Positions 18,927-54,515 of a stretch of DNA of 64,000 nt are shown in pieces (the first letter of the stretch is position 1; each line of letters starts with the position of its first letter). The notes under the pieces are model-generated. The model made no database searches. It saw nothing but the letters and a program-made list of their open reading frames with translations, and was not told where the DNA came from. The stretch spans positions 451,193 through 515,192 of the forward strand of contig JAZKDJ010000001.1 of the NCBI GenBank assembly GCA_040387635.1, written 5' to 3'. This stretch comes from Patescibacteria group bacterium (GTDB taxonomy: Bacteria > Patescibacteriota > Minisyncoccia > Phycocordibacterales > PALSA-1337). A program made the translations under genes and the position numbers.

Positions 18927-19010
18927 GCGCAGGTGGCGAAATTGGTAGACGCACTACCTTGAGGTGGTAGCGCCTTCACGGGCTTGGAGGTTCAAATCCT
19001 CTCCTGCGCA
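18927..19010 (+). tRNA. tRNA-Leu (anticodon GAG)
   Basis: 84 nt with a long variable arm. Anticodon arm CTACC-TTGAGGT-GGTAG; T-loop GGTTCAAATCC. Confidence 0.85.
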
Positions 19011-19067
19011 CATTGTTTCAGATTACTCAGAACACTGTACGGTTCGGAGTGTTTCCGAGGCAAGCAT

Positions 19068-19139
19068 GGTGGCTATAGTTTAGTGGTAAAACTCCGGTTT
19101 GTGGAACCGGTATCGAGAGTCCGATTCTCTCTAGCCACC
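19068..19139 (+). tRNA. tRNA-His (anticodon GTG) with encoded G-1
   Basis: G-GTGGCTA ... TAGCCAC-C acceptor with an extra 5' G. Anticodon arm CCGGT-TTGTGGA-ACCGG. Confidence 0.85.
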
Positions 19140-19213
19140 CTAGTGGGAATTAGTATAAGGAAGTCTTGTATTTGTCATGTAAAATTAGTTCGAGCTCATG
19201 ATACAATTATTCT

Positions 19214-19660
19214 ATGAATAAAATTTTATTGGCAATTTTAGCAATTGCCGCAGGATATTTTGTATGGTTTGTATATACCTATAATCATCTTACAACTACC
19301 TTTATTTACATCTTCGCCTTTCTCGTATTATTTTTAGTTCTGGTCTTAATGATTCGTTATCTAGAACTTTATTGGAGAGTAACAGTCTTCAAACATTTGG
19401 CTAGGAGATATTCTCTGGCTCATCAATACTCATATTCGGTATGGGGATCAGAAAAGACATTTAATACGCTAGGAGGAATGATCAATGGAAAAAGAGTTAA
19501 AGTCTCTGACAATATTCACTTAAATTTAGCTATCTATGCGAATTATTTGGTAACAAGAGTTTATATAGGAGACCAAATAGTTGCTGATGGAAGTAAGAGA
19601 TGGTTTAAGCATACCTTTTCTCAGTCTTCTATCGACCAGATACTTAGGAATATCAAGTAA
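19214..19660 (+). CDS. hypothetical membrane protein
   Basis: 148 aa with two N-terminal TM helices. Confidence 0.45.
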   Translation: MNKILLAILAIAAGYFVWFVYTYNHLTTTFIYIFAFLVLFLVLVLMIRYLELYWRVTVFKHLARRYSLAHQYSYSVWGSEKTFNTLGGMINGKRVKVSDNIHLNLAIYANYLVTRVYIGDQIVADGSKRWFKHTFSQSSIDQILRNIK

Positions 19661-19695
19661 GCCGAGGAGTTCATATTTAACTAGGAAGGTGGGGA

Positions 19696-20184
19696 ATGAA
19701 AATGCTTGAATCGTTCCTCTTCTCAAATTCAAATATAGTTCTAACTTCCTCTACGATGGCACCCCATATAATGGATATAGTTTCTCGAACAAAAGCATTA
19801 AATCTCCCGATAGGACAATATTGTGTTTTTGGAAGTGGAGTATTAGAAGTCCATGGAATTCGTAAGGCAAAGGATATAGATATCCTTGTGAATGGCGAGT
19901 TGTTTAAAAAATTAAAAAAAGAAGGTTGGAAACGAAAATGGTTTTTCTGGAGAACTCTATGGGCTAAGTGTATTACAAACGGTCAGAATGAAGCCTTCAC
20001 TAATCTTTACTGGGCTAGAAAATATAGACCAAATACACAAGAATTAATAAATCGAGCGGAGCTTCACGATGGAATACCTTTTCTTCAGTTAGAAGATTTA
20101 TTAGAATTTCAAAGAAATTTACCTCGAGAGAAGGATAAAAGGGGAGTGAAAATGATGGAGGATTATTTTGCTTCTAAAAAGTAA
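19696..20184 (+). CDS. putative small nucleotidyltransferase-fold protein
   Basis: CVFGSGVLEVHGIRKAKDIDILV matches the GSG ... DxD nucleotidyltransferase signature. Confidence 0.5.
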   Translation: MKMLESFLFSNSNIVLTSSTMAPHIMDIVSRTKALNLPIGQYCVFGSGVLEVHGIRKAKDIDILVNGELFKKLKKEGWKRKWFFWRTLWAKCITNGQNEAFTNLYWARKYRPNTQELINRAELHDGIPFLQLEDLLEFQRNLPREKDKRGVKMMEDYFASKK

Positions 20185-20346
20185 TTATCTTTAAGCTGAT
20201 TAAAGTATTTAATAACTTCAACTTAAGCTCATCACTCGATCTCTGATTGACAAAGAACGACATTGGTTATATTTTAGGTTTGGACAAAGTAGCATGTTGC
20301 TGCTCCCATAACTGGCCAATATAAGCCATTCCCAAAAGGAAAAATT

Positions 20347-20787
20347 ATGGATAAGGTAACGATTCGTTTCGGTAAAAAACTGCAGGAAGTGCTCAGAGAT
20401 AATCCTGCTTTTTTTAAAGAGCTCACCTTACAAACCGCCTTTGCATTTGTGGGGTTTGTCACTTCAATCACATCACTTGGATTTTGTGGTGGAGTACCTA
20501 TAAAAATATTCAGGGTTCATGATTGTGACATTCTCAAGACCGGAGGCTTGATACCTGGACCCAGAACAAGAAACCTTCTTGAAGATGCTAATCGGCTCAG
20601 CGATAGGATAGCTGTAGAGTTTGAAATCGCCGAGACTTCTAATCGCGTAAGCGTTAAGTTCCATTTTTACGGAAGTGGCAAAAAAGCACCCATCTATTTA
20701 CGGTGCGCGGGGATAGTTGAGGAGGATTACGTTCGCGAGTTTCCGTTGTTTCAATTCACTTCAGAATTTTTCCCCCAATTCTGTTAA
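20347..20787 (+). CDS. hypothetical protein
   Basis: 146-aa ORF with no motif recognised. Confidence 0.4.
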   Translation: MDKVTIRFGKKLQEVLRDNPAFFKELTLQTAFAFVGFVTSITSLGFCGGVPIKIFRVHDCDILKTGGLIPGPRTRNLLEDANRLSDRIAVEFEIAETSNRVSVKFHFYGSGKKAPIYLRCAGIVEEDYVREFPLFQFTSEFFPQFC

Positions 20788-20796
20788 ACATTTCTT

Positions 20797-20845
20797 ACCG
20801 CTCGACAGATTCCGCCCTACGGTCTCTGTCGAGCGGTTTCTTTTT
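20797..20845 (+). terminator. intrinsic terminator
   Basis: 13-bp stem ACCGCTCGACAGA ... TCTGTCGAGCGGT followed by TTCTTTTT. Separates 20347-20787 from the CDPS block. Confidence 0.8.
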
Positions 20846-20903
20846 ATCTAACCTAGGCTCCAATTAATCTCGCATACGATCGCGCTCTATAAGTTCTAAC
20901 CAC

Positions 20904-22385
20904 TTGTACGTACTAACCCCACGCTTAGAAAAAGAGTTTATTAGGGGATACAAAAGGATCTTATTCTGCTATGCTTTCTTTATGATTGATTTGTATCCAG
21001 TAATTGGGATGAGTCCTGGGAACAGCTATTTTAAAGATGAGGAAGTAACTTATCTTCTTAAAACAGTTGTAGAACGATATGGTAAGACTGCAATTCTCAT
21101 TGCAGATATTCCAGCCGTTTCTACTTATGTGGCTCTTGGTTATCCTCAGAATAGAGCAAGAAGAGATAAGGCTTTACCACAGGGAAATAATTTGAGAAAC
21201 CGTACTCTTCGAGTAGCGCATGAACTTGGCCTATCCGATAAGGTAAGGGTTATCGATTGGGAAACAGAAATTGAGAATAATTTGGAATATAAAAAAACAT
21301 ACGAGAGAATTTTGCATTTATATACTACAAACTCTGATTTTGAAACATCAGCAAATAAAACTACGAGGGGTGTATTAGAACATTACAAAAAAGACATTTC
21401 TGACATGGATTTGGCTGTTAGAACTGCCGTACATTACCTTCTTTCTGAATTGGCTTTTCTTGAGTTTGCGCCGAAGTATTTTGGTGTTGAAAAGGTTTCA
21501 TATGTCTATCACAAAAACTGGCAAGTTTACGAGGATTATATTGCTGGAAAATTTGACGGTGTAATAAAACTACATATGGATTTTATTCTCTTAGAAAACC
21601 CATATGAAACATACAACCCAATTTGGGGATTGGAAGAGCAGGAAGATGAAAAATATAGAGATGTCTTAGATCGAATTGAAAAAACAAAAACGTTGAGAGT
21701 TGGATTTATACAGTCCGTTCCTACTTTTATGTATGATAAGGACCTCAATAATTTCTCAGGTATTTTTTATGAAATTATAAATATCATTTCTAAGAAATAT
21801 GATTGGAAGATTCAATGGACTGAAGAAACGGGGTACGGTGTTATTGCAGAAGGGTTGAATAACGACAGGTTTGATATATTCGGTCCGACTGTATGGCCAA
21901 CTCCAGAGCGTCTAAGGGTCGCCACTTTTTCCAAGTCGCTTTTTAAAAGTCCTGTATTTACATATGTTCGTTCAGATAATTATAAAAGTGAATTAGATCT
22001 TAAGGACAATGCAAATATGAGAGTTGTAATTATGGATAATGACATTATGGACTCCATAGCAAAAGAGGATTTTCCAAATAACCGTCAAGTCATGATACCT
22101 CAACTCTCAAGTAATATTGCGTGTGCTAAATTTGTCGCAGATGGCAAAGGAGATTTTACTTTCAGGGAGAAATATCTTGTTGAATATTTTAATAAAGATT
22201 CTAACATTAAACTTATTGCTGCTTCAGAAAAACCGATTAGGGTTTATGAAAATTCGTTTATGTTAAAAAAGGGGGAGGCTCGGTTAAAAGAGTTTTTAGA
22301 TAAGGAGCTTGATATATTGGAGCAAGATGGGACAATTAAAAGTTTGATAAAGAAATACACGGGTTCTGAAGATGCTTTTCTATGA
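20904..22385 (+). CDS. cyclodipeptide synthase (NYH subfamily) fused to a type-2 periplasmic-binding-protein (family-3 SBP-like) domain
   Basis: From the TTG start: IGMSPGNSYF (G35, S37, N40), HYLLSE (Y178, E182) and YVYH (Y202, H203), the same residue numbers as AlbC from memory. Residues from about 262 on (TLRVGFIQSVPTF ... DRFDIFGPTVWPTPERL ... FSKSLF) look like an amino-acid-type SBP. No signal peptide. Confidence 0.75.
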   Translation: MYVLTPRLEKEFIRGYKRILFCYAFFMIDLYPVIGMSPGNSYFKDEEVTYLLKTVVERYGKTAILIADIPAVSTYVALGYPQNRARRDKALPQGNNLRNRTLRVAHELGLSDKVRVIDWETEIENNLEYKKTYERILHLYTTNSDFETSANKTTRGVLEHYKKDISDMDLAVRTAVHYLLSELAFLEFAPKYFGVEKVSYVYHKNWQVYEDYIAGKFDGVIKLHMDFILLENPYETYNPIWGLEEQEDEKYRDVLDRIEKTKTLRVGFIQSVPTFMYDKDLNNFSGIFYEIINIISKKYDWKIQWTEETGYGVIAEGLNNDRFDIFGPTVWPTPERLRVATFSKSLFKSPVFTYVRSDNYKSELDLKDNANMRVVIMDNDIMDSIAKEDFPNNRQVMIPQLSSNIACAKFVADGKGDFTFREKYLVEYFNKDSNIKLIAASEKPIRVYENSFMLKKGEARLKEFLDKELDILEQDGTIKSLIKKYTGSEDAFL

Positions 22386-22423
22386 GGTTCTAACACTGTT
22401 CATTACAGGGTATACTTTGTCTC

Positions 22424-23275
22424 ATGGATTCTTGGTTTTTCAATTCGATTCTCGCTATGGCTGCCTTTGGTGGTATGCAAGCCTTGTTAAAGGTTCCTGC
22501 AGCGAAGGGTTACAGTAAATTTGTTTACTCGGTCCTTAGTTTTGCGGTGGCCTTAATTTTAAGTTTTGTATTTTTTAGGAGTGACATATCTTTTGATGTG
22601 CACACAATGCTCTTTGGTTTTGCGTGGGGAATTGCGAATGCTGCATATGTGCTTCTTCAGATGCAGATATTAAAAAGACTTGATACGAGTGAATCTTTTC
22701 CGATAACTAGTTTGGGTTCGCATGTTCTCGTTGTGATTATCGGCATTTTCTTTTTTAATGACATTCTTTCAGCTCTGCAAACTGCTGCGCTTATCGGAAC
22801 ATTCTTGCTTATCGGTTTCTATAATCATACGAATAAGCACATAACACTGAGTAACGGTTTGATACCTACTGCAGCAGGAATCATTTTGCTTTCAACTTTC
22901 ATAAAGTTTATCCAAAAATCAGGTTCGATATCCAGCGTGACAGGCGACTATATCTTCTGGCAATTGTTTTTCGCTACGATTGCTTCCGTACTTATTCTGC
23001 TGCTGACTAAAAATAAACGACTGGCTGAAAGGAAGGTTGATGGGAAATTGATAATATGGTCTTCTCTCGCTGGTATTTTATTCTTCGCTGGAACTGTAGC
23101 TATGGTCAAGGCGCTTACAACCGGGCCATTTTCATTGGTGTACACCATCAATACTTTCTATATATTGGTGAGTTCGATTGTAGCTTGGAAGCTTTTTGGA
23201 GAGAAACTGACACGTCAGAAGGTGCTATTTATTTTGTTGGCTATTGTGGTTCTTGTGTTGATTAAGGTTGGGTAG
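22424..23275 (+). CDS. DMT-superfamily (EamA-like) permease
   Basis: 283 aa with about 10 hydrophobic helices in two similar halves. Confidence 0.6.
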   Translation: MDSWFFNSILAMAAFGGMQALLKVPAAKGYSKFVYSVLSFAVALILSFVFFRSDISFDVHTMLFGFAWGIANAAYVLLQMQILKRLDTSESFPITSLGSHVLVVIIGIFFFNDILSALQTAALIGTFLLIGFYNHTNKHITLSNGLIPTAAGIILLSTFIKFIQKSGSISSVTGDYIFWQLFFATIASVLILLLTKNKRLAERKVDGKLIIWSSLAGILFFAGTVAMVKALTTGPFSLVYTINTFYILVSSIVAWKLFGEKLTRQKVLFILLAIVVLVLIKVG

Positions 23276-23344
23276 GTGGTTCTCATTAAACTACATATTA
23301 ATCACGGTGTTATGTGTGTATCTATTACGAGGTATACTCAAATA

Positions 23345-24184
23345 ATGGAAGCCAAATATACTCCCTTAGATAAATCTTGGATTATTCGCATGGGCATTCT
23401 TGATATTGCTCATGGATACTCTGACATCATCAATTTTCTTAATGCTCAAGAAAACCTTGGAGATGATTTGATTGCACTAAAAAGAGCAGCACTTGCTTGG
23501 GATAAAAATGAACCAATTGATGTAGGTGAATCGGGAACGCTGTATAGGTTCCTAAAATTTACATCTTGGAAACTAAACCTCAACAAAGAATTTGTAATTC
23601 ATAGGACTCTTAAGGAAAGAAAAATAACTGATGATCCGAGTGTCGTAGACCTGCCACAAAGTGAACTAATTAAACTGGATAATAATACTTCTCAGTGGGC
23701 GAGTGCAAAAGTTTTACTGGGAGATACAGAGAGGTTAGAGAATCCTTCGTATAAACTCAAAGTAACATACGAGGCGGTTGATCATTGGAATAATATGCGA
23801 GCTGAAGGAAAAGTGTGGGAACCTCGATACGACGAAACAATACAGAGACAAGTTGAAGCTTTTGAGAAAATGCTAAAGGGTGAGAACGTTGAATTTGTTC
23901 CCGAGCAGGCTGAAGATTTTTGTTTTGCTTATACCTTTGGGTACGTAACCTTAGAAGAAGGAGAGAAGAAATGGCCAAGCCTACGTGGACATGAGAGTGA
24001 TCGAATAGATGAGATGGAGAAAACATTGGTTCAAGCCAAAGAAGGAAGGGAAATAATCTCTAAGGATCATAGGGTAATACAAGCAATAGGGATGTGGGGT
24101 AAGTTGAATAATATAAAGTTAAATATTTTGTATCCAGAGTCAGTTAATAAAAGCTGGCCTCAATTCTGTGATTTTTTATCTTAA
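23345..24184 (+). CDS. size-reduced EPSP-synthase-fold (enolpyruvyl transferase-like) protein
   Basis: LDKSWIIR (AroA KSxxxR), GESGTLYRFL (GNAGTAMRPL), LKERK (KERP), TSQ (SSQ), HESDR (KETDR), DHRVIQ (DHRMAM), NKSWPQF (AKTFPDYF). Only about 279 aa against about 430 for AroA. The ATG at 23345 is preferred over the GTG at 23276. Confidence 0.5.
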   Translation: MEAKYTPLDKSWIIRMGILDIAHGYSDIINFLNAQENLGDDLIALKRAALAWDKNEPIDVGESGTLYRFLKFTSWKLNLNKEFVIHRTLKERKITDDPSVVDLPQSELIKLDNNTSQWASAKVLLGDTERLENPSYKLKVTYEAVDHWNNMRAEGKVWEPRYDETIQRQVEAFEKMLKGENVEFVPEQAEDFCFAYTFGYVTLEEGEKKWPSLRGHESDRIDEMEKTLVQAKEGREIISKDHRVIQAIGMWGKLNNIKLNILYPESVNKSWPQFCDFLS

Positions 24185-24250
24185 CAACCGACAGAATAAG
24201 AGTACGAAAGAGTTTAAGCTTTATCGATAGGGCCGGGTTATAATTTAGCA

Positions 24251-25531
24251 ATGAAGAAAATCATTGTAGCGATCCTTGTTGTTGATCTCATTGTTGTGGC
24301 TGGTTATTTTCTGCTCAAATCTTTGCCTCAGGCAAACCCGAACCTTGCTTTTCCAACTGTATCTACATCTACACCCACATCTACGTCTACCGTTCCTACT
24401 GATCCAGATCCAAACCTGACTTACGAAGAACACACATTCACGACAAATAGCGGGGAAGCTTTCTCGCTTTCGCTGCCTGCCGGATACACGATCTCGTTGG
24501 CTGCTTCAGGTTTGGGGCGAGTGCGTTTCATGGACATGAGTCCGGATGGAAGACTTTTTGTTACTGATATGAAAAATCTTTCTGATAGTCCTGACGGCGA
24601 AATATATATTCTCGATGCATTCAATGAGCAGACGAAACGATTTGAATCTAAGAAAACATATTTGTCTCGTTTAAGAAATCCAAACAGCATCGCATTTTAC
24701 AAAGACGCTTCAGATAAGACGTGGATTTATATTGCTTTGACCGATCGTCTCATTCGCTATGCTTATGCTGCAGGAGATGATGCGCCACAAGGGGAGCCTG
24801 AAACACTCGCAACCTATCCTGATTATGGACTCAATTATAAATATGGCGGCTGGCATCTGACACGTACGGTTTATATTTTGAATGACAAAGTATATGTTTC
24901 TGTAGGATCAAGCTGTAACTCATGTGAAGAGAAAGAGTCTGAGTCTGTGCGCGCGACGATTTCTGAAATGAATCCTGATGGAACTGGGCAGAAGATAATT
25001 GCTACGGGTGCAAGAAATTCGGTTGGCCTTACGAATAAGGAAGGGGAGCTCTATGCGTCGGCAATGGGTGCGGATCATCTAGGAAGTGATAGGCCTGAAG
25101 ATGCTGTATACAAAATTACAGAGGGCAAAAATTATGGTTGGCCATATTGCTATCAATATCAGGGCGTTGTGTATCCTGACACTGCTCAGATTTGGAAGAA
25201 GCCGATTGATTGTTCTACTGTGCCACTTGCGTTCGCAACAGTTCCAGCACATTCTGCGCCGCTTGGGTTGGCGTATTTTGATAATAAGTCACCAGACGAA
25301 CTCAAGAACAGTATGCTCCTTGCACTGCACGGCTCGGGTATTGTTTCTTTGGGACGAGGATATAGCATTGTAAAGATAGATGAAAAGGGAAACGTTAGTG
25401 ACTTTGTCACAGGGTTCTGGAAAAACGGTGTTCGATACGGACGTCCTGTTGGAATCTTGAAAGTTTCTCCTACGAGTTTTTATTTTACTGATGATTTTAG
25501 TGGGAGGTTGTATTTGGTTTCGAAGGAGTAA
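24251..25531 (+). CDS. membrane-anchored PQQ-type (soluble glucose/sorbosone dehydrogenase-like) beta-propeller
   Basis: N-terminal TM, Ser/Thr/Pro linker, NYGWPYCY motif and repeated propeller-like segments. Confidence 0.7.
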   Translation: MKKIIVAILVVDLIVVAGYFLLKSLPQANPNLAFPTVSTSTPTSTSTVPTDPDPNLTYEEHTFTTNSGEAFSLSLPAGYTISLAASGLGRVRFMDMSPDGRLFVTDMKNLSDSPDGEIYILDAFNEQTKRFESKKTYLSRLRNPNSIAFYKDASDKTWIYIALTDRLIRYAYAAGDDAPQGEPETLATYPDYGLNYKYGGWHLTRTVYILNDKVYVSVGSSCNSCEEKESESVRATISEMNPDGTGQKIIATGARNSVGLTNKEGELYASAMGADHLGSDRPEDAVYKITEGKNYGWPYCYQYQGVVYPDTAQIWKKPIDCSTVPLAFATVPAHSAPLGLAYFDNKSPDELKNSMLLALHGSGIVSLGRGYSIVKIDEKGNVSDFVTGFWKNGVRYGRPVGILKVSPTSFYFTDDFSGRLYLVSKE

Positions 25532-25542
25532 ATGTAAGAAGT

Positions 25543-26169
25543 ATGTCTATTCTCTTAAACTATTTGGGTCAGTTAAGGTTGTACTCTCTCGCAGATTTAA
25601 TAATTTTACTTTTAGCTATCCAAGCTACCTCGAAAGAATTTGCTGGAGTTATTCTTTTGCATGTTGGGTTTCTCGCTTTTCTTGAAAGTAGGCATTCTCA
25701 TTCGTATAGAAGGAAAGTACCTAATTTAGTATGGATAGCATTAGGGATTGCAGGAATATTTTTGTATGGACATATCGAAGTGATTGGATTTATTGTTTTT
25801 AGTTATCTTTATGCCAAGAAAAATAAGGGCATGGCGGGAGGCTTTTCATTCCTATCAAGAGGACTCCAGCTGTTCTTTCTTGTGGCAGGAATCACTTCAT
25901 TTGCATCGATGTTGCCGTGGGTTGCTTTGGGTGCGTTTTCTGTAAGGAACCTACTGGGTGATTTTCGAGATGTAGAAAAAGATACCAAAGAGGGAATGAT
26001 GACGATGCCGATAGTTATGGGAATGAAGAAAGGCTTTAGGTATGCACATTTATTTGCCACCATGCTCACTACGATTCTTTGGTGGAGTTTGGGGGATCTG
26101 CACATTAGCTATTTAGTTGGGGCGTTAATTATAGAAATTGTTACGTACCAATGGACGCCAAGAAGGTAA
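25543..26169 (+). CDS. short UbiA-prenyltransferase-like membrane protein
   Basis: One Asp-rich motif, NLLGDFRDVEKDTKEGMMTMP, resembling UbiA NxxxDxxxD...P. Only 208 aa and no second Asp-rich motif seen. Confidence 0.4.
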   Translation: MSILLNYLGQLRLYSLADLIILLLAIQATSKEFAGVILLHVGFLAFLESRHSHSYRRKVPNLVWIALGIAGIFLYGHIEVIGFIVFSYLYAKKNKGMAGGFSFLSRGLQLFFLVAGITSFASMLPWVALGAFSVRNLLGDFRDVEKDTKEGMMTMPIVMGMKKGFRYAHLFATMLTTILWWSLGDLHISYLVGALIIEIVTYQWTPRR

Positions 26170-26207: not shown

Positions 26208-26235
26208 AAAAAGCCACGACGAATCGTGGCTTTTT
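26208..26235. terminator. bidirectional intrinsic terminator
   Basis: Stem AGCCACGA-CGAA-TCGTGGCT flanked by AAAA / TTTTT, between convergent genes. Confidence 0.8.
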
Positions 26236-53957: not shown

Positions 53958-54515
53958 ATGAATACACAGCCTGACATTTCTATTACGACATCGACACCAC
54001 CACCGACACTTCAGTCCGCGCCTTCTAAAATCTCCCTTATTGGTATGCCGTCATCGGGTAAATCAAATGTTGGAATGATGCTTGCGGGCAAGTTGGGTCG
54101 CAAGTTCATGGATCTTGATAGGATGGTGGAACATAGGGAGGGTCAGTCACTCATTTCCATACTTGAAACCAAGGGTGGAGAGTATTTTCTTAATATCGAA
54201 AACGAATTTTTACATAACATTCAGCCTGACGAAAAGGTTGTGATCTCAACTGCTGGCAGTATCATTTATCACGCAGAGGCAATTGAGTGGCTCAAGAGCA
54301 ATACAATTGTCGTTCTTTTGGATACGCCATTTGAAACTATTGAAGCGCGTTTGGCCAAGAAGCCGAAAGCTGTCGTGGGATTGAAGGAGAAGGGTCTGGT
54401 AAAACTTTGGGAAGAGCGCATGCCTGTATATAGAAACCTGGCTAATATCACTGTACAGACTAGCGGCAAGAGCATGGAGTATATCGTTGCAGAAATACTT
54501 GCGAGCCTCGGCTAA
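53958..54515 (+). CDS. aroK: shikimate kinase
   Basis: P-loop GMPSSGKSNVG, followed by FMDLD and EGQSL. Confidence 0.75.
   Translation: MNTQPDISITTSTPPPTLQSAPSKISLIGMPSSGKSNVGMMLAGKLGRKFMDLDRMVEHREGQSLISILETKGGEYFLNIENEFLHNIQPDEKVVISTAGSIIYHAEAIEWLKSNTIVVLLDTPFETIEARLAKKPKAVVGLKEKGLVKLWEERMPVYRNLANITVQTSGKSMEYIVAEILASLG

Follow-up and report, generated by a model that had tools for sequence, protein, structure and literature searches.

A predicted miniature EPSP-synthase fold shared by CPR bacteria and DPANN archaea, and its possible action apart from the shikimate pathway

EPSP synthase (5-enolpyruvylshikimate-3-phosphate synthase, AroA) and MurA share a fold of six beta-alpha-beta-alpha-beta-beta units, each of which is closed by a beta-hairpin. 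EPSP synthase is the target of glyphosate, and MurA, which uses phosphoenolpyruvate (PEP), is the target of fosfomycin. In NikO/PolA, the uridine monophosphate (UMP) 3'-O-enolpyruvyl transferase of nikkomycin and polyoxin biosynthesis, the fold has been recruited to a non-canonical acceptor. To our knowledge, the six-fold repeat fold of EPSP synthase and MurA has been regarded as fixed at about 420–450 residues. Here we describe a gene at positions 23345–24184 of a 64,000-nt stretch of the genome of a Patescibacteria group bacterium (contig JAZKDJ010000001.1; the whole stretch is hereafter referred to as the window), the product of which is a short relative of EPSP synthase. No account of a short EPSP-synthase-like family in bacteria of the candidate phyla radiation (CPR) or in DPANN archaea came up in our literature search; the nearest item was a preprint on the recruitment of full-length AroA homologues to arseno-organic gene clusters (bioRxiv 10.1101/020503).

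The reading frame is open throughout, and the gene is intact:

23345–24184, + strand: gene of the mini protein (P0001), ATG start, stop codon included, 279 aa

A longer reading would start at an upstream GTG at 23276. The ATG was preferred because the N-termini of the homologues agree with it: in 30 aligned homologues, they lie 3–15 residues ahead of an invariant I-P-L-D-K-S-W block. The product is 148 residues shorter than E. coli AroA (427 aa), in keeping with the original prediction, which had put it at about two-thirds the length of AroA or MurA. That prediction had also aligned seven ligand-binding motifs of AroA by eye. All seven are found in the stated order, which is far beyond chance, and the profile–profile alignment described below sets each of them on its E. 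coli AroA counterpart. They are given here together with one further segment, AEDFCF.

23366–23389, + strand: LDKSWIIR, residues 8–15; K10, S11 and R15 correspond to AroA K22, S23 and R27, and D9, acidic and specific to the family, stands in place of S21
23525–23548, + strand: GESGTLYR, residues 61–68; G64, T65 and R68 correspond to AroA G96, T97 and R100, and the family-specific E62 replaces N94
23609–23623, + strand: LKERK, residues 89–93; R92 corresponds to AroA R124, a ligand of the PEP phosphate
23687–23695, + strand: TSQ, residues 115–117, corresponding to AroA S169, S170 and Q171
23909–23926, + strand: AEDFCF, residues 189–194; E190, D191 and C193 are nearly invariant, and the profile places the segment on AroA helix alpha-8 (QGD273), not on D313
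23990–24004, + strand: HESDR, residues 216–220; E217 and R220 correspond to AroA E341 and R344, and H216 replaces K340
24065–24082, + strand: DHRVIQ, residues 241–246, corresponding to AroA D384, H385 and R386
24146–24166, + strand: NKSWPQF, residues 268–274; K269 corresponds to AroA K411

As judged from the profiles, the homology to EPSP synthase is real though missed by routine annotation. A deep family profile (214 members, down to about 33% identity) was compared by hhalign with an AroA profile composed of E. coli AroA and 19 CPR AroAs. The local alignment spans 266 columns at a probability of 98.8% and an E-value of 5.7e-17, while global alignments reach 2.3e-22 and 1.1e-22; the probability across runs is 98.8–99.6%. 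These alignments place the motifs on AroA K22/S23/R27, G96/T97/R100, R124, S169–Q171, K340–R344, D384–R386 and K411. Both deep profiles were needed, because the shallow comparisons (Pfam, NCBIfam, and hhalign of a 30-sequence alignment against E. coli AroA alone) aligned only the C-terminal 40–45 residues; the enolpyruvyl-transferase match thus emerges from the deep profiles, while the curated Pfam and NCBIfam models stay below their cut-offs. A search of all Protein Data Bank sequences with the 30-sequence family profile had EPSP synthases and the AroA module of AROM as its sole matches, with an E-value of 0.035. The match consists of four collinear blocks, in which family positions 10–52, 61–75, 217–235 and 238–284 are aligned with AroA positions 19–61, 90–104, 341–359 and 379–426, respectively. 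The NCBIfam MurA model did not match the mini protein, and about one-quarter of its relatives carry a weak precomputed match to PF00275.

The predicted structure gives the same picture. The AlphaFold2 model has a pLDDT of 93.2 and a pTM of 0.87, and every top Foldseek match to it is an EPSP synthase, with E-values no better than 0.08. In VIA-align, the model was superposed on K. pneumoniae AroA (7TM4) with a Z-score of 17.6 and a root-mean-square deviation of 3.3 A over 253 of the 279 residues, spanning AroA 14–421; against EPSP synthases in general, the Z-scores are 16.6–17.6 with 244–265 aligned residues, while unrelated chains score 3.3 at most. An unbiased VIA-align search of 48,161 representative chains ranked EPSP synthases first (16.7, 16.6 and 15.9), followed by MurA (13.3), NikO (12.8) and RtcA (5.8), with the rest at 4.3 or below. 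The sequence identity is 16–22% to AroA versus 9–10% to MurA and NikO. From the matches of hhalign and VIA-align to EPSP synthases, the mini protein is an enolpyruvyl-transferase-fold protein that is closest to AroA in both structure score and identity. The miniaturised EPSP-synthase fold of the original prediction is thus borne out, and the model does not point to an unrelated fold.

The retention of the AroA ligands, the other part of that prediction, can be read from the alignment of the family. The counts below are out of 214 family sequences unless a non-gap total is given.

AroA K22: K10 in the mini protein, 193 of 197 non-gap
AroA S23: S11, 181 of 214
AroA R27: R15, 185 of 214
AroA G96: G64, G in 166 and A in 33 of 214
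AroA T97: T65, 199 of 214
AroA R100: R68, 198 of 214
AroA R124: R92, 210 of 214
AroA S169, S170 and Q171: T115, S116 and Q117; 202, 183 and 207 of 214, respectively
AroA E341: E217, 208 of 214
AroA R344: R220, 211 of 214
AroA H385: H242, 211 of 214
AroA R386: R243, 214 of 214
AroA K411: K269, 213 of 214

The PEP/glyphosate site of the E. coli 1G6S complex, which we take to be formed by K22, G96, R124, Q171, E341, R344, H385, R386 and K411, has an aligned counterpart at every position (K10, G64, R92, Q117, E217, R220, H242, R243 and K269), each conserved in 193–214 sequences except for G64; the retained residues include all the direct PEP/glyphosate ligands of that complex. As for the shikimate-3-phosphate site (S23, R27, S169, S170, S197, Y200, N336 and K340), S11, R15, T115 and S116 are kept, while S197 is changed to N/D133, Y200 to Y/F136, N336 to S/A212 and K340 to H216. 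Most of the ligand-binding residues have therefore been retained and are conserved across the family. Three substitutions are themselves conserved: H for K340 in 200 sequences (H216), E for N94 in 203 (E62) and D for S21 in 172 (D9), each 1–2 positions away from a catalytic residue. Together, these three could bind a cation or an ammonium group.

What the fold has lost was mapped by laying the profile alignment on the DSSP elements of a predicted CPR AroA (430 aa, pLDDT 94.4). Eleven of the 12 long AroA helices have counterparts, which are helical in the model of the mini protein; most of the strands of the terminal hairpins do not.

AroA helices with a counterpart in the mini protein: 23–35, 49–60, 94–104, 125–133 (partial), 169–181, 197–209, 241–254, 270–280, 345–355, 385–395 and 416–422
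AroA strands with little or no counterpart: 3–7, 64–67, 71–77, 149–152, partly 137–140, 221–224, 284–288, 293–297, 359–362, 366–371 and 426–429

The two-lobed fold of the superfamily is thus recognised over residues 1–279, with the 11 helices matched one-to-one and in collinear order. Complete four-strand units are not present: in each of the six units, the strands of the hairpin are matched hardly or not at all, and the model contains only two short strands. AroA 283–324 has no counterpart in the profile alignment, and the mini protein has in the region of the D313 helix only a seven-residue helix at 203–209 (LEEGEKK). In these models, the shortfall of 148 residues is one type of deletion, that of the terminal beta-hairpin, made six times, plus the loss of one helix, and no whole domain is missing. 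The systematic deletion of the hairpins and the loss of the D313 helix therefore account for the difference in length.

The reading that we prefer, and to which we give a probability of roughly one half, is that the mini protein acts as an autonomous PEP-dependent carboxyvinyl transferase on an acceptor other than pathway-supplied shikimate-3-phosphate. The family of about 285 aa would have been derived from EPSP synthase, within the AroA branch of the enolpyruvyl (carboxyvinyl) transferase superfamily, by losing the hairpin that ends each of the six units and the helix that carries D313. What remains would be a two-lobed, mostly helical core, with a cleft holding every PEP ligand of AroA and most of the ligands of shikimate-3-phosphate. 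PEP would still be bound there, and the carboxyvinyl group may be transferred by addition–elimination to a hydroxyl, or possibly an amino, group of an anionic small-molecule acceptor. The gene probably acts alone, without the cyclodipeptide synthase (CDPS) genes that adjoin it in the window, and would represent a seldom-found accessory gene with a history of horizontal transfer among CPR and DPANN organisms. Its function would be independent of both the shikimate pathway and the CDPS genes, because the pathway genes were not found in the genome and no CDPS gene occurs at about 76 other loci; both results are given below.

The distribution of the family is wide and sparse. A search at E ≤ 1e-3 retrieved 772 homologues, nearly all of 265–305 aa (about 285) and all annotated as 'hypothetical', which cluster into 218 representatives at 50% identity. 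The identity is 58–76% among the best 120 homologues and 45–76% over the family. The named bacterial carriers belong to Patescibacteria/CPR (Minisyncoccia, Paceibacterota, Saccharibacteria and others), and the DPANN carriers, at 45–60% identity, are Woese-, Pace-, Nano-, Nanohalo- and Micrarchaeota; CPR and DPANN members overall are 45–69% identical. Unlike EPSP synthase, the family is limited to these two groups, and its occurrence is sporadic: only 5 genomes (about 2%) of a phylum sample of 301 carry the gene, the window genome included, and none of the relatives of the window genome at the order or class level within that sample does. In a maximum-likelihood tree of 67 sequences, bacterial and archaeal members are intermixed. 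The Bacteria/Archaea label requires at least 9 changes (mean for shuffled labels, 16.5), and branches with SH-aLRT ≥ 95 impose 5 or more of these; the domain labels rest on the binning of metagenome-assembled genomes, a procedure that can mislabel contigs. This interleaving and the high cross-domain identity point to repeated lateral transfer between CPR and DPANN.

A phage origin was not indicated, since tblastn of 50,697 phage records gave no match. One IMG/VR contig alone, of doubtful viral status, contains a family member (IMGVR_UViG_3300009545_000201, here L129; 5 kb; match at 686–1495, 51% identity); its sole recognisable gene encodes a PhoH-like ATPase, and it has no recognisable virion gene. 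The PADLOC models of defence systems matched neither the mini protein nor the products of its four neighbours, and no RNA datasets containing the gene were listed; the one dataset listed for it is the metagenome from which the genome probably came.

In one clade of the tree (SH-aLRT 98), the mini protein is fused at its C-terminal side to a pyridoxal phosphate (PLP) enzyme of about 400 aa. The proteins are 704–719 aa long at four loci, labelled as Paceibacterota or Saccharibacteria, and the fusion is also found in the family members P0124 and P0150.

L034, 7414–10118: fusion of the mini EPSP-synthase-like protein and the PLP enzyme
L037, 1509–4186: the same fusion
L040, 1838–4527: the same fusion
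L035, 146–2877: the same fusion

At a further locus (L028), the PLP enzyme is encoded by an unfused, divergent neighbour of the mini gene. The PLP enzyme scores 139–143 bits on the model of serine hydroxymethyltransferase (SHMT; cut-off 335) and 113–130 bits on that of fluorothreonine transaldolase (cut-off 650); in the window genome, its only match is an ordinary GlyA-like protein of 25% identity. A HAD-type hydrolase of 188 aa is encoded directly upstream of the fusion; the two genes either overlap by 4 nt or are at most 11 nt apart. The products or substrates of SHMT-like aldolases and transaldolases are beta-hydroxy-alpha-amino acids. By analogy, and from this single clade, a phosphorylated beta-hydroxy-alpha-amino acid would fit an AroA-type pocket with its carboxylate, hydroxyl and phosphate groups, and would offer an ammonium group to the acidic residues. 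The SHMT-like fusion, the coupled HAD phosphatase and the presence of D9, E62 and H216 in the cleft are the grounds for this guess at the acceptor. The fuller proposal, in which a minimal active enolpyruvyl transferase makes a new carboxyvinyl metabolite (an enol ether or an N-carboxyvinyl compound) from PEP and such an amino acid or a similar compound, as an accessory trait traded between CPR and DPANN, is speculative, and we hold it improbable as a whole.

Other features were seen around these fusions. A protein of about 415 aa of an unrecognised family is also encoded upstream at three of the four fusion loci (L035 is cut at its end). Apart from the PLP-enzyme fusions, the family search found only two longer fused forms: P0271 (616 aa), in which a mini EPSP-synthase-like domain is followed by a Peptidase_C39_2 (YvpB-like) domain, and P0125 (490 aa), which has an unrecognised N-terminal extension of about 207 aa. 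Each is a single instance and could be a gene-calling fusion.

Apart from the uncertain domain labels mentioned above, several observations weigh against our reading as a carboxyvinyl transferase. One group concerns homology: the Pfam search of the mini protein gave no match at E ≤ 0.1, PF00275 included; in a six-frame search, PF00275 reached 10.5 bits against a cut-off of 22.8; and TIGR01356 (aroA) matched residues 240–278 only, with 26.3 bits against a cut-off of 287. Another concerns the catalytic machinery. AroA strand 306–308 and helix 313–324, at the head of which lies the catalytic D313 (E. coli numbering), are unaligned in the mini protein, and the 214-sequence alignment contains no invariant residue at the position of this general acid/base. 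The candidate stand-ins are E204 and E205, with which the remnant helix begins; only about 61% of the members have an acidic residue at the first of these positions and about 79% at the second. In addition, D9, E62 and H216 add negative charge near the phosphate sites and could be signs of another donor, of a metal site or of binding that is not catalytic. The last is that the association with the SHMT-like enzyme and the HAD hydrolase is limited to one clade. The nearly invariant motif E190-D191-x-C193 aligns weakly with the QGD start of AroA helix 8, and when the D191 segment is aligned alone to alpha-8 or alpha-9, the scores are 9–10 with E-values of about 0.5.

The loss of the D313 helix would also be expected of a non-catalytic ligand binder, that is, a pseudo-enzyme that, for example, senses PEP or a phospho-metabolite by the closure of its lobes and acts on a partner. 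The unusually high conservation over the whole surface (58–76% identity between distant lineages), which could reflect macromolecular contacts, and the lack of pathway neighbours are consistent with this idea. However, E217 (AroA E341) and K10 (AroA K22), which serve chemistry only, are as invariant as the binding arginines; no partner gene is conserved; and the fusion to the PLP enzyme and the coupling to the HAD hydrolase point to metabolism. We regard a pseudo-enzyme as rather unlikely, although it survives best among the alternatives.

The next alternative is a genuine minimal EPSP synthase that works on shikimate-3-phosphate or shikimate scavenged from a host, and it was examined through the metabolism of the genome. 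The sequence searched is a single contig of 566 kb, for which the protein database records 587 kb, so that about 20 kb may be missing. No match was found in it to chorismate synthase, dehydroquinate synthase or shikimate dehydrogenase (PF01264, PF01761 and PF08501, respectively), while the same searches matched 12–14 of 14 control genomes. Of aroB, aroE, aroK and aroC, then, the first, second and last were not found, and for aroK only a sub-threshold kinase is present:

53958–54515, + strand: SKI-family kinase, scoring best among the NCBIfam models on that of Desulfo-type homoserine kinase (122 bits against a cut-off of 197)

An aroK had been proposed at this position; a kinase of the SKI family indeed lies there, but it falls below every curated cut-off for shikimate kinase. 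In a minimal EPSP synthase scenario, this kinase would phosphorylate shikimate. The scenario is in line with the finding that the nearest relatives in fold and sequence are EPSP synthases rather than MurA or NikO, and with the conserved counterparts of S23, R27, S169/S170/Q171 and the aromatic residue at Y200. On the other hand, EPSP would be left without a consumer in this one-contig genome, since none of chorismate synthase, dehydroquinate synthase and shikimate dehydrogenase was found. The substitutions of K340, N94 and S21 and the missing D313 helix also speak against it, as does the homoserine-kinase-like score of the kinase. Nor do the other carriers support it: the SKI family occurs in 50 and canonical AroA in 25 of the 301 sampled genomes, but the other four carriers have no SKI-family kinase, none of the carriers has a canonical AroA, and in 79 loci, SKI homologues are absent up to 8 kb from the mini gene. 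We therefore consider the view of this gene as a very reduced aroA, as originally suggested, to be unlikely, and a pairing with an AroK-like kinase was rejected.

The genome encodes enolase, so that PEP can be made, and a canonical MurA (438 aa, 443 bits on TIGR01072), by which the cell-wall role would be covered. No match was found in the 566-kb sequence to MurB (PF02873 and TIGR00179), pyruvate kinase (PF00224) or the PEP-utilising PPDK/PpsA (PF02896). A replacement of pyruvate kinase by the mini gene was rejected, as the carriers G086 and G276 possess pyruvate kinase, which is found in 208 of the 301 genomes. The unpublished genome G154 is counted in this tally, and nothing else stated here depends on it.

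A nucleotide or an RNA end could also be imagined as the acceptor, in the manner of NikO on UMP or RtcA on an RNA 3'-phosphate. Both are fold relatives of the mini protein: NikO (4FQD) shares the enolpyruvyl-transferase fold with a Z-score of 12.8, and RtcA/Rcl1, the RNA 3'-terminal phosphate cyclases, share the repeated unit with Z-scores of 5.1–5.8 over the N-terminal lobe. Genes for translation and tRNA are often neighbours of the family, though they are common in small genomes, and such an acceptor would fit organisms living on salvaged nucleotides. The identities given above, however, favour AroA over NikO (10%) and MurA (9%), the retained acceptor-side residues are of the AroA type, and no nucleotide-binding motif was seen; we think this alternative quite improbable. 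NikO moreover differs in being of full length (a 435-residue chain), and its gene belongs to a biosynthetic cluster; no cluster accompanies the mini family. RtcA differs in its chemistry (adenylylation of a histidine) and its extra insert domain, and RtcA/Rcl1 have no common motif with the family. MurA, which can be superposed over 252 residues (5U4H, Z 13.3), likewise differs in that the acceptor-side residues of the mini protein follow AroA.

In the window, the mini gene is the third of five co-directional genes, which are separated by 0–69 nt and have no predicted terminator between them before the hairpin at 26208–26235.

20904–22385, + strand: CDPS-SBP_bac_3 fusion gene, upstream and co-directional; link to the mini gene not conserved elsewhere
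22424–23275, + strand: EamA-type permease gene, upstream and co-directional; link to the mini gene not conserved elsewhere
24251–25531, + strand: GSDH-like beta-propeller gene, downstream of the mini gene
25543–26169, + strand: short UbiA-like gene, downstream of the mini gene, after the GSDH-like gene
26208–26235: bidirectional terminator-like hairpin, after the UbiA-like gene

The proposal that the enzyme was recruited to this CDPS block was not upheld when about 76 other loci were inspected. None of the four window neighbours lies beside the orthologues there (each forms a singleton cluster), no CDPS (PF16715) occurs among the 138 flanking genes, the largest neighbour cluster comprises 7 loci, and the commonest Pfam family, ribosomal protein L21, appears 4 times. 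Orthologues of 57–69% identity adjoin ftsW, tRNA synthetase genes such as ileS, the L21 gene, tsaD and other housekeeping or unrelated genes. Because these loci have neither CDPS nor any conserved neighbour, the co-directional placement beside the CDPS gene is most likely incidental. Enolpyruvylation of a diketopiperazine by the mini protein as a tailoring enzyme of the local cluster, for which the compact gene arrangement would speak, is accordingly the least credible of the alternatives, given these loci and a conserved pocket that suits phosphate or carboxylate ligands and not a neutral diketopiperazine.

The block has features of its own. The first gene is a single 493-aa open reading frame with a CDPS domain (PF16715, 93 bits; TIGR04539, 116 bits) and an SBP_bac_3 domain (65 bits), and the fusion of CDPS to a periplasmic-type solute-binding domain in a CPR genome is an unusual CDPS architecture. 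The UbiA-like product (208 aa) matches only the C-terminal part of the prenyltransferase models (Pfam, 24.8 bits; cut-off 34.2) and represents a prenyltransferase that is either truncated or highly divergent. The block lies in a low-GC stretch at 19000–25000 (35–41%, flanks mostly 42–54%), which begins right after two tRNA genes and further contains open reading frames without a family match (19214–20787). It looks like an acquired island.

18927–19011: tRNA-Leu(gag), upstream of the low-GC stretch that holds the mini gene
19069–19140: tRNA-His(gtg), upstream of the same stretch

The mini family represents a natural version of the EPSP-synthase fold that is one third smaller, in which the terminal beta-hairpin has been shed from every repeat while the catalytic cleft has been kept. 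It offers a ready-made minimal scaffold for the study of fold closure and catalysis, and it raises the question of whether the hairpins were later additions or were lost. If the mini protein is an active enolpyruvyl transferase, the EPSP-synthase fold works without its entire outer beta-sheet layer; if it is only a binder or a structural relic, the interest is mainly structural. For the organisms, the family is a clear case of a gene common to ultra-small bacteria and archaea, and it may mark a PEP-consuming reaction in the otherwise very sparse metabolism of CPR and DPANN.

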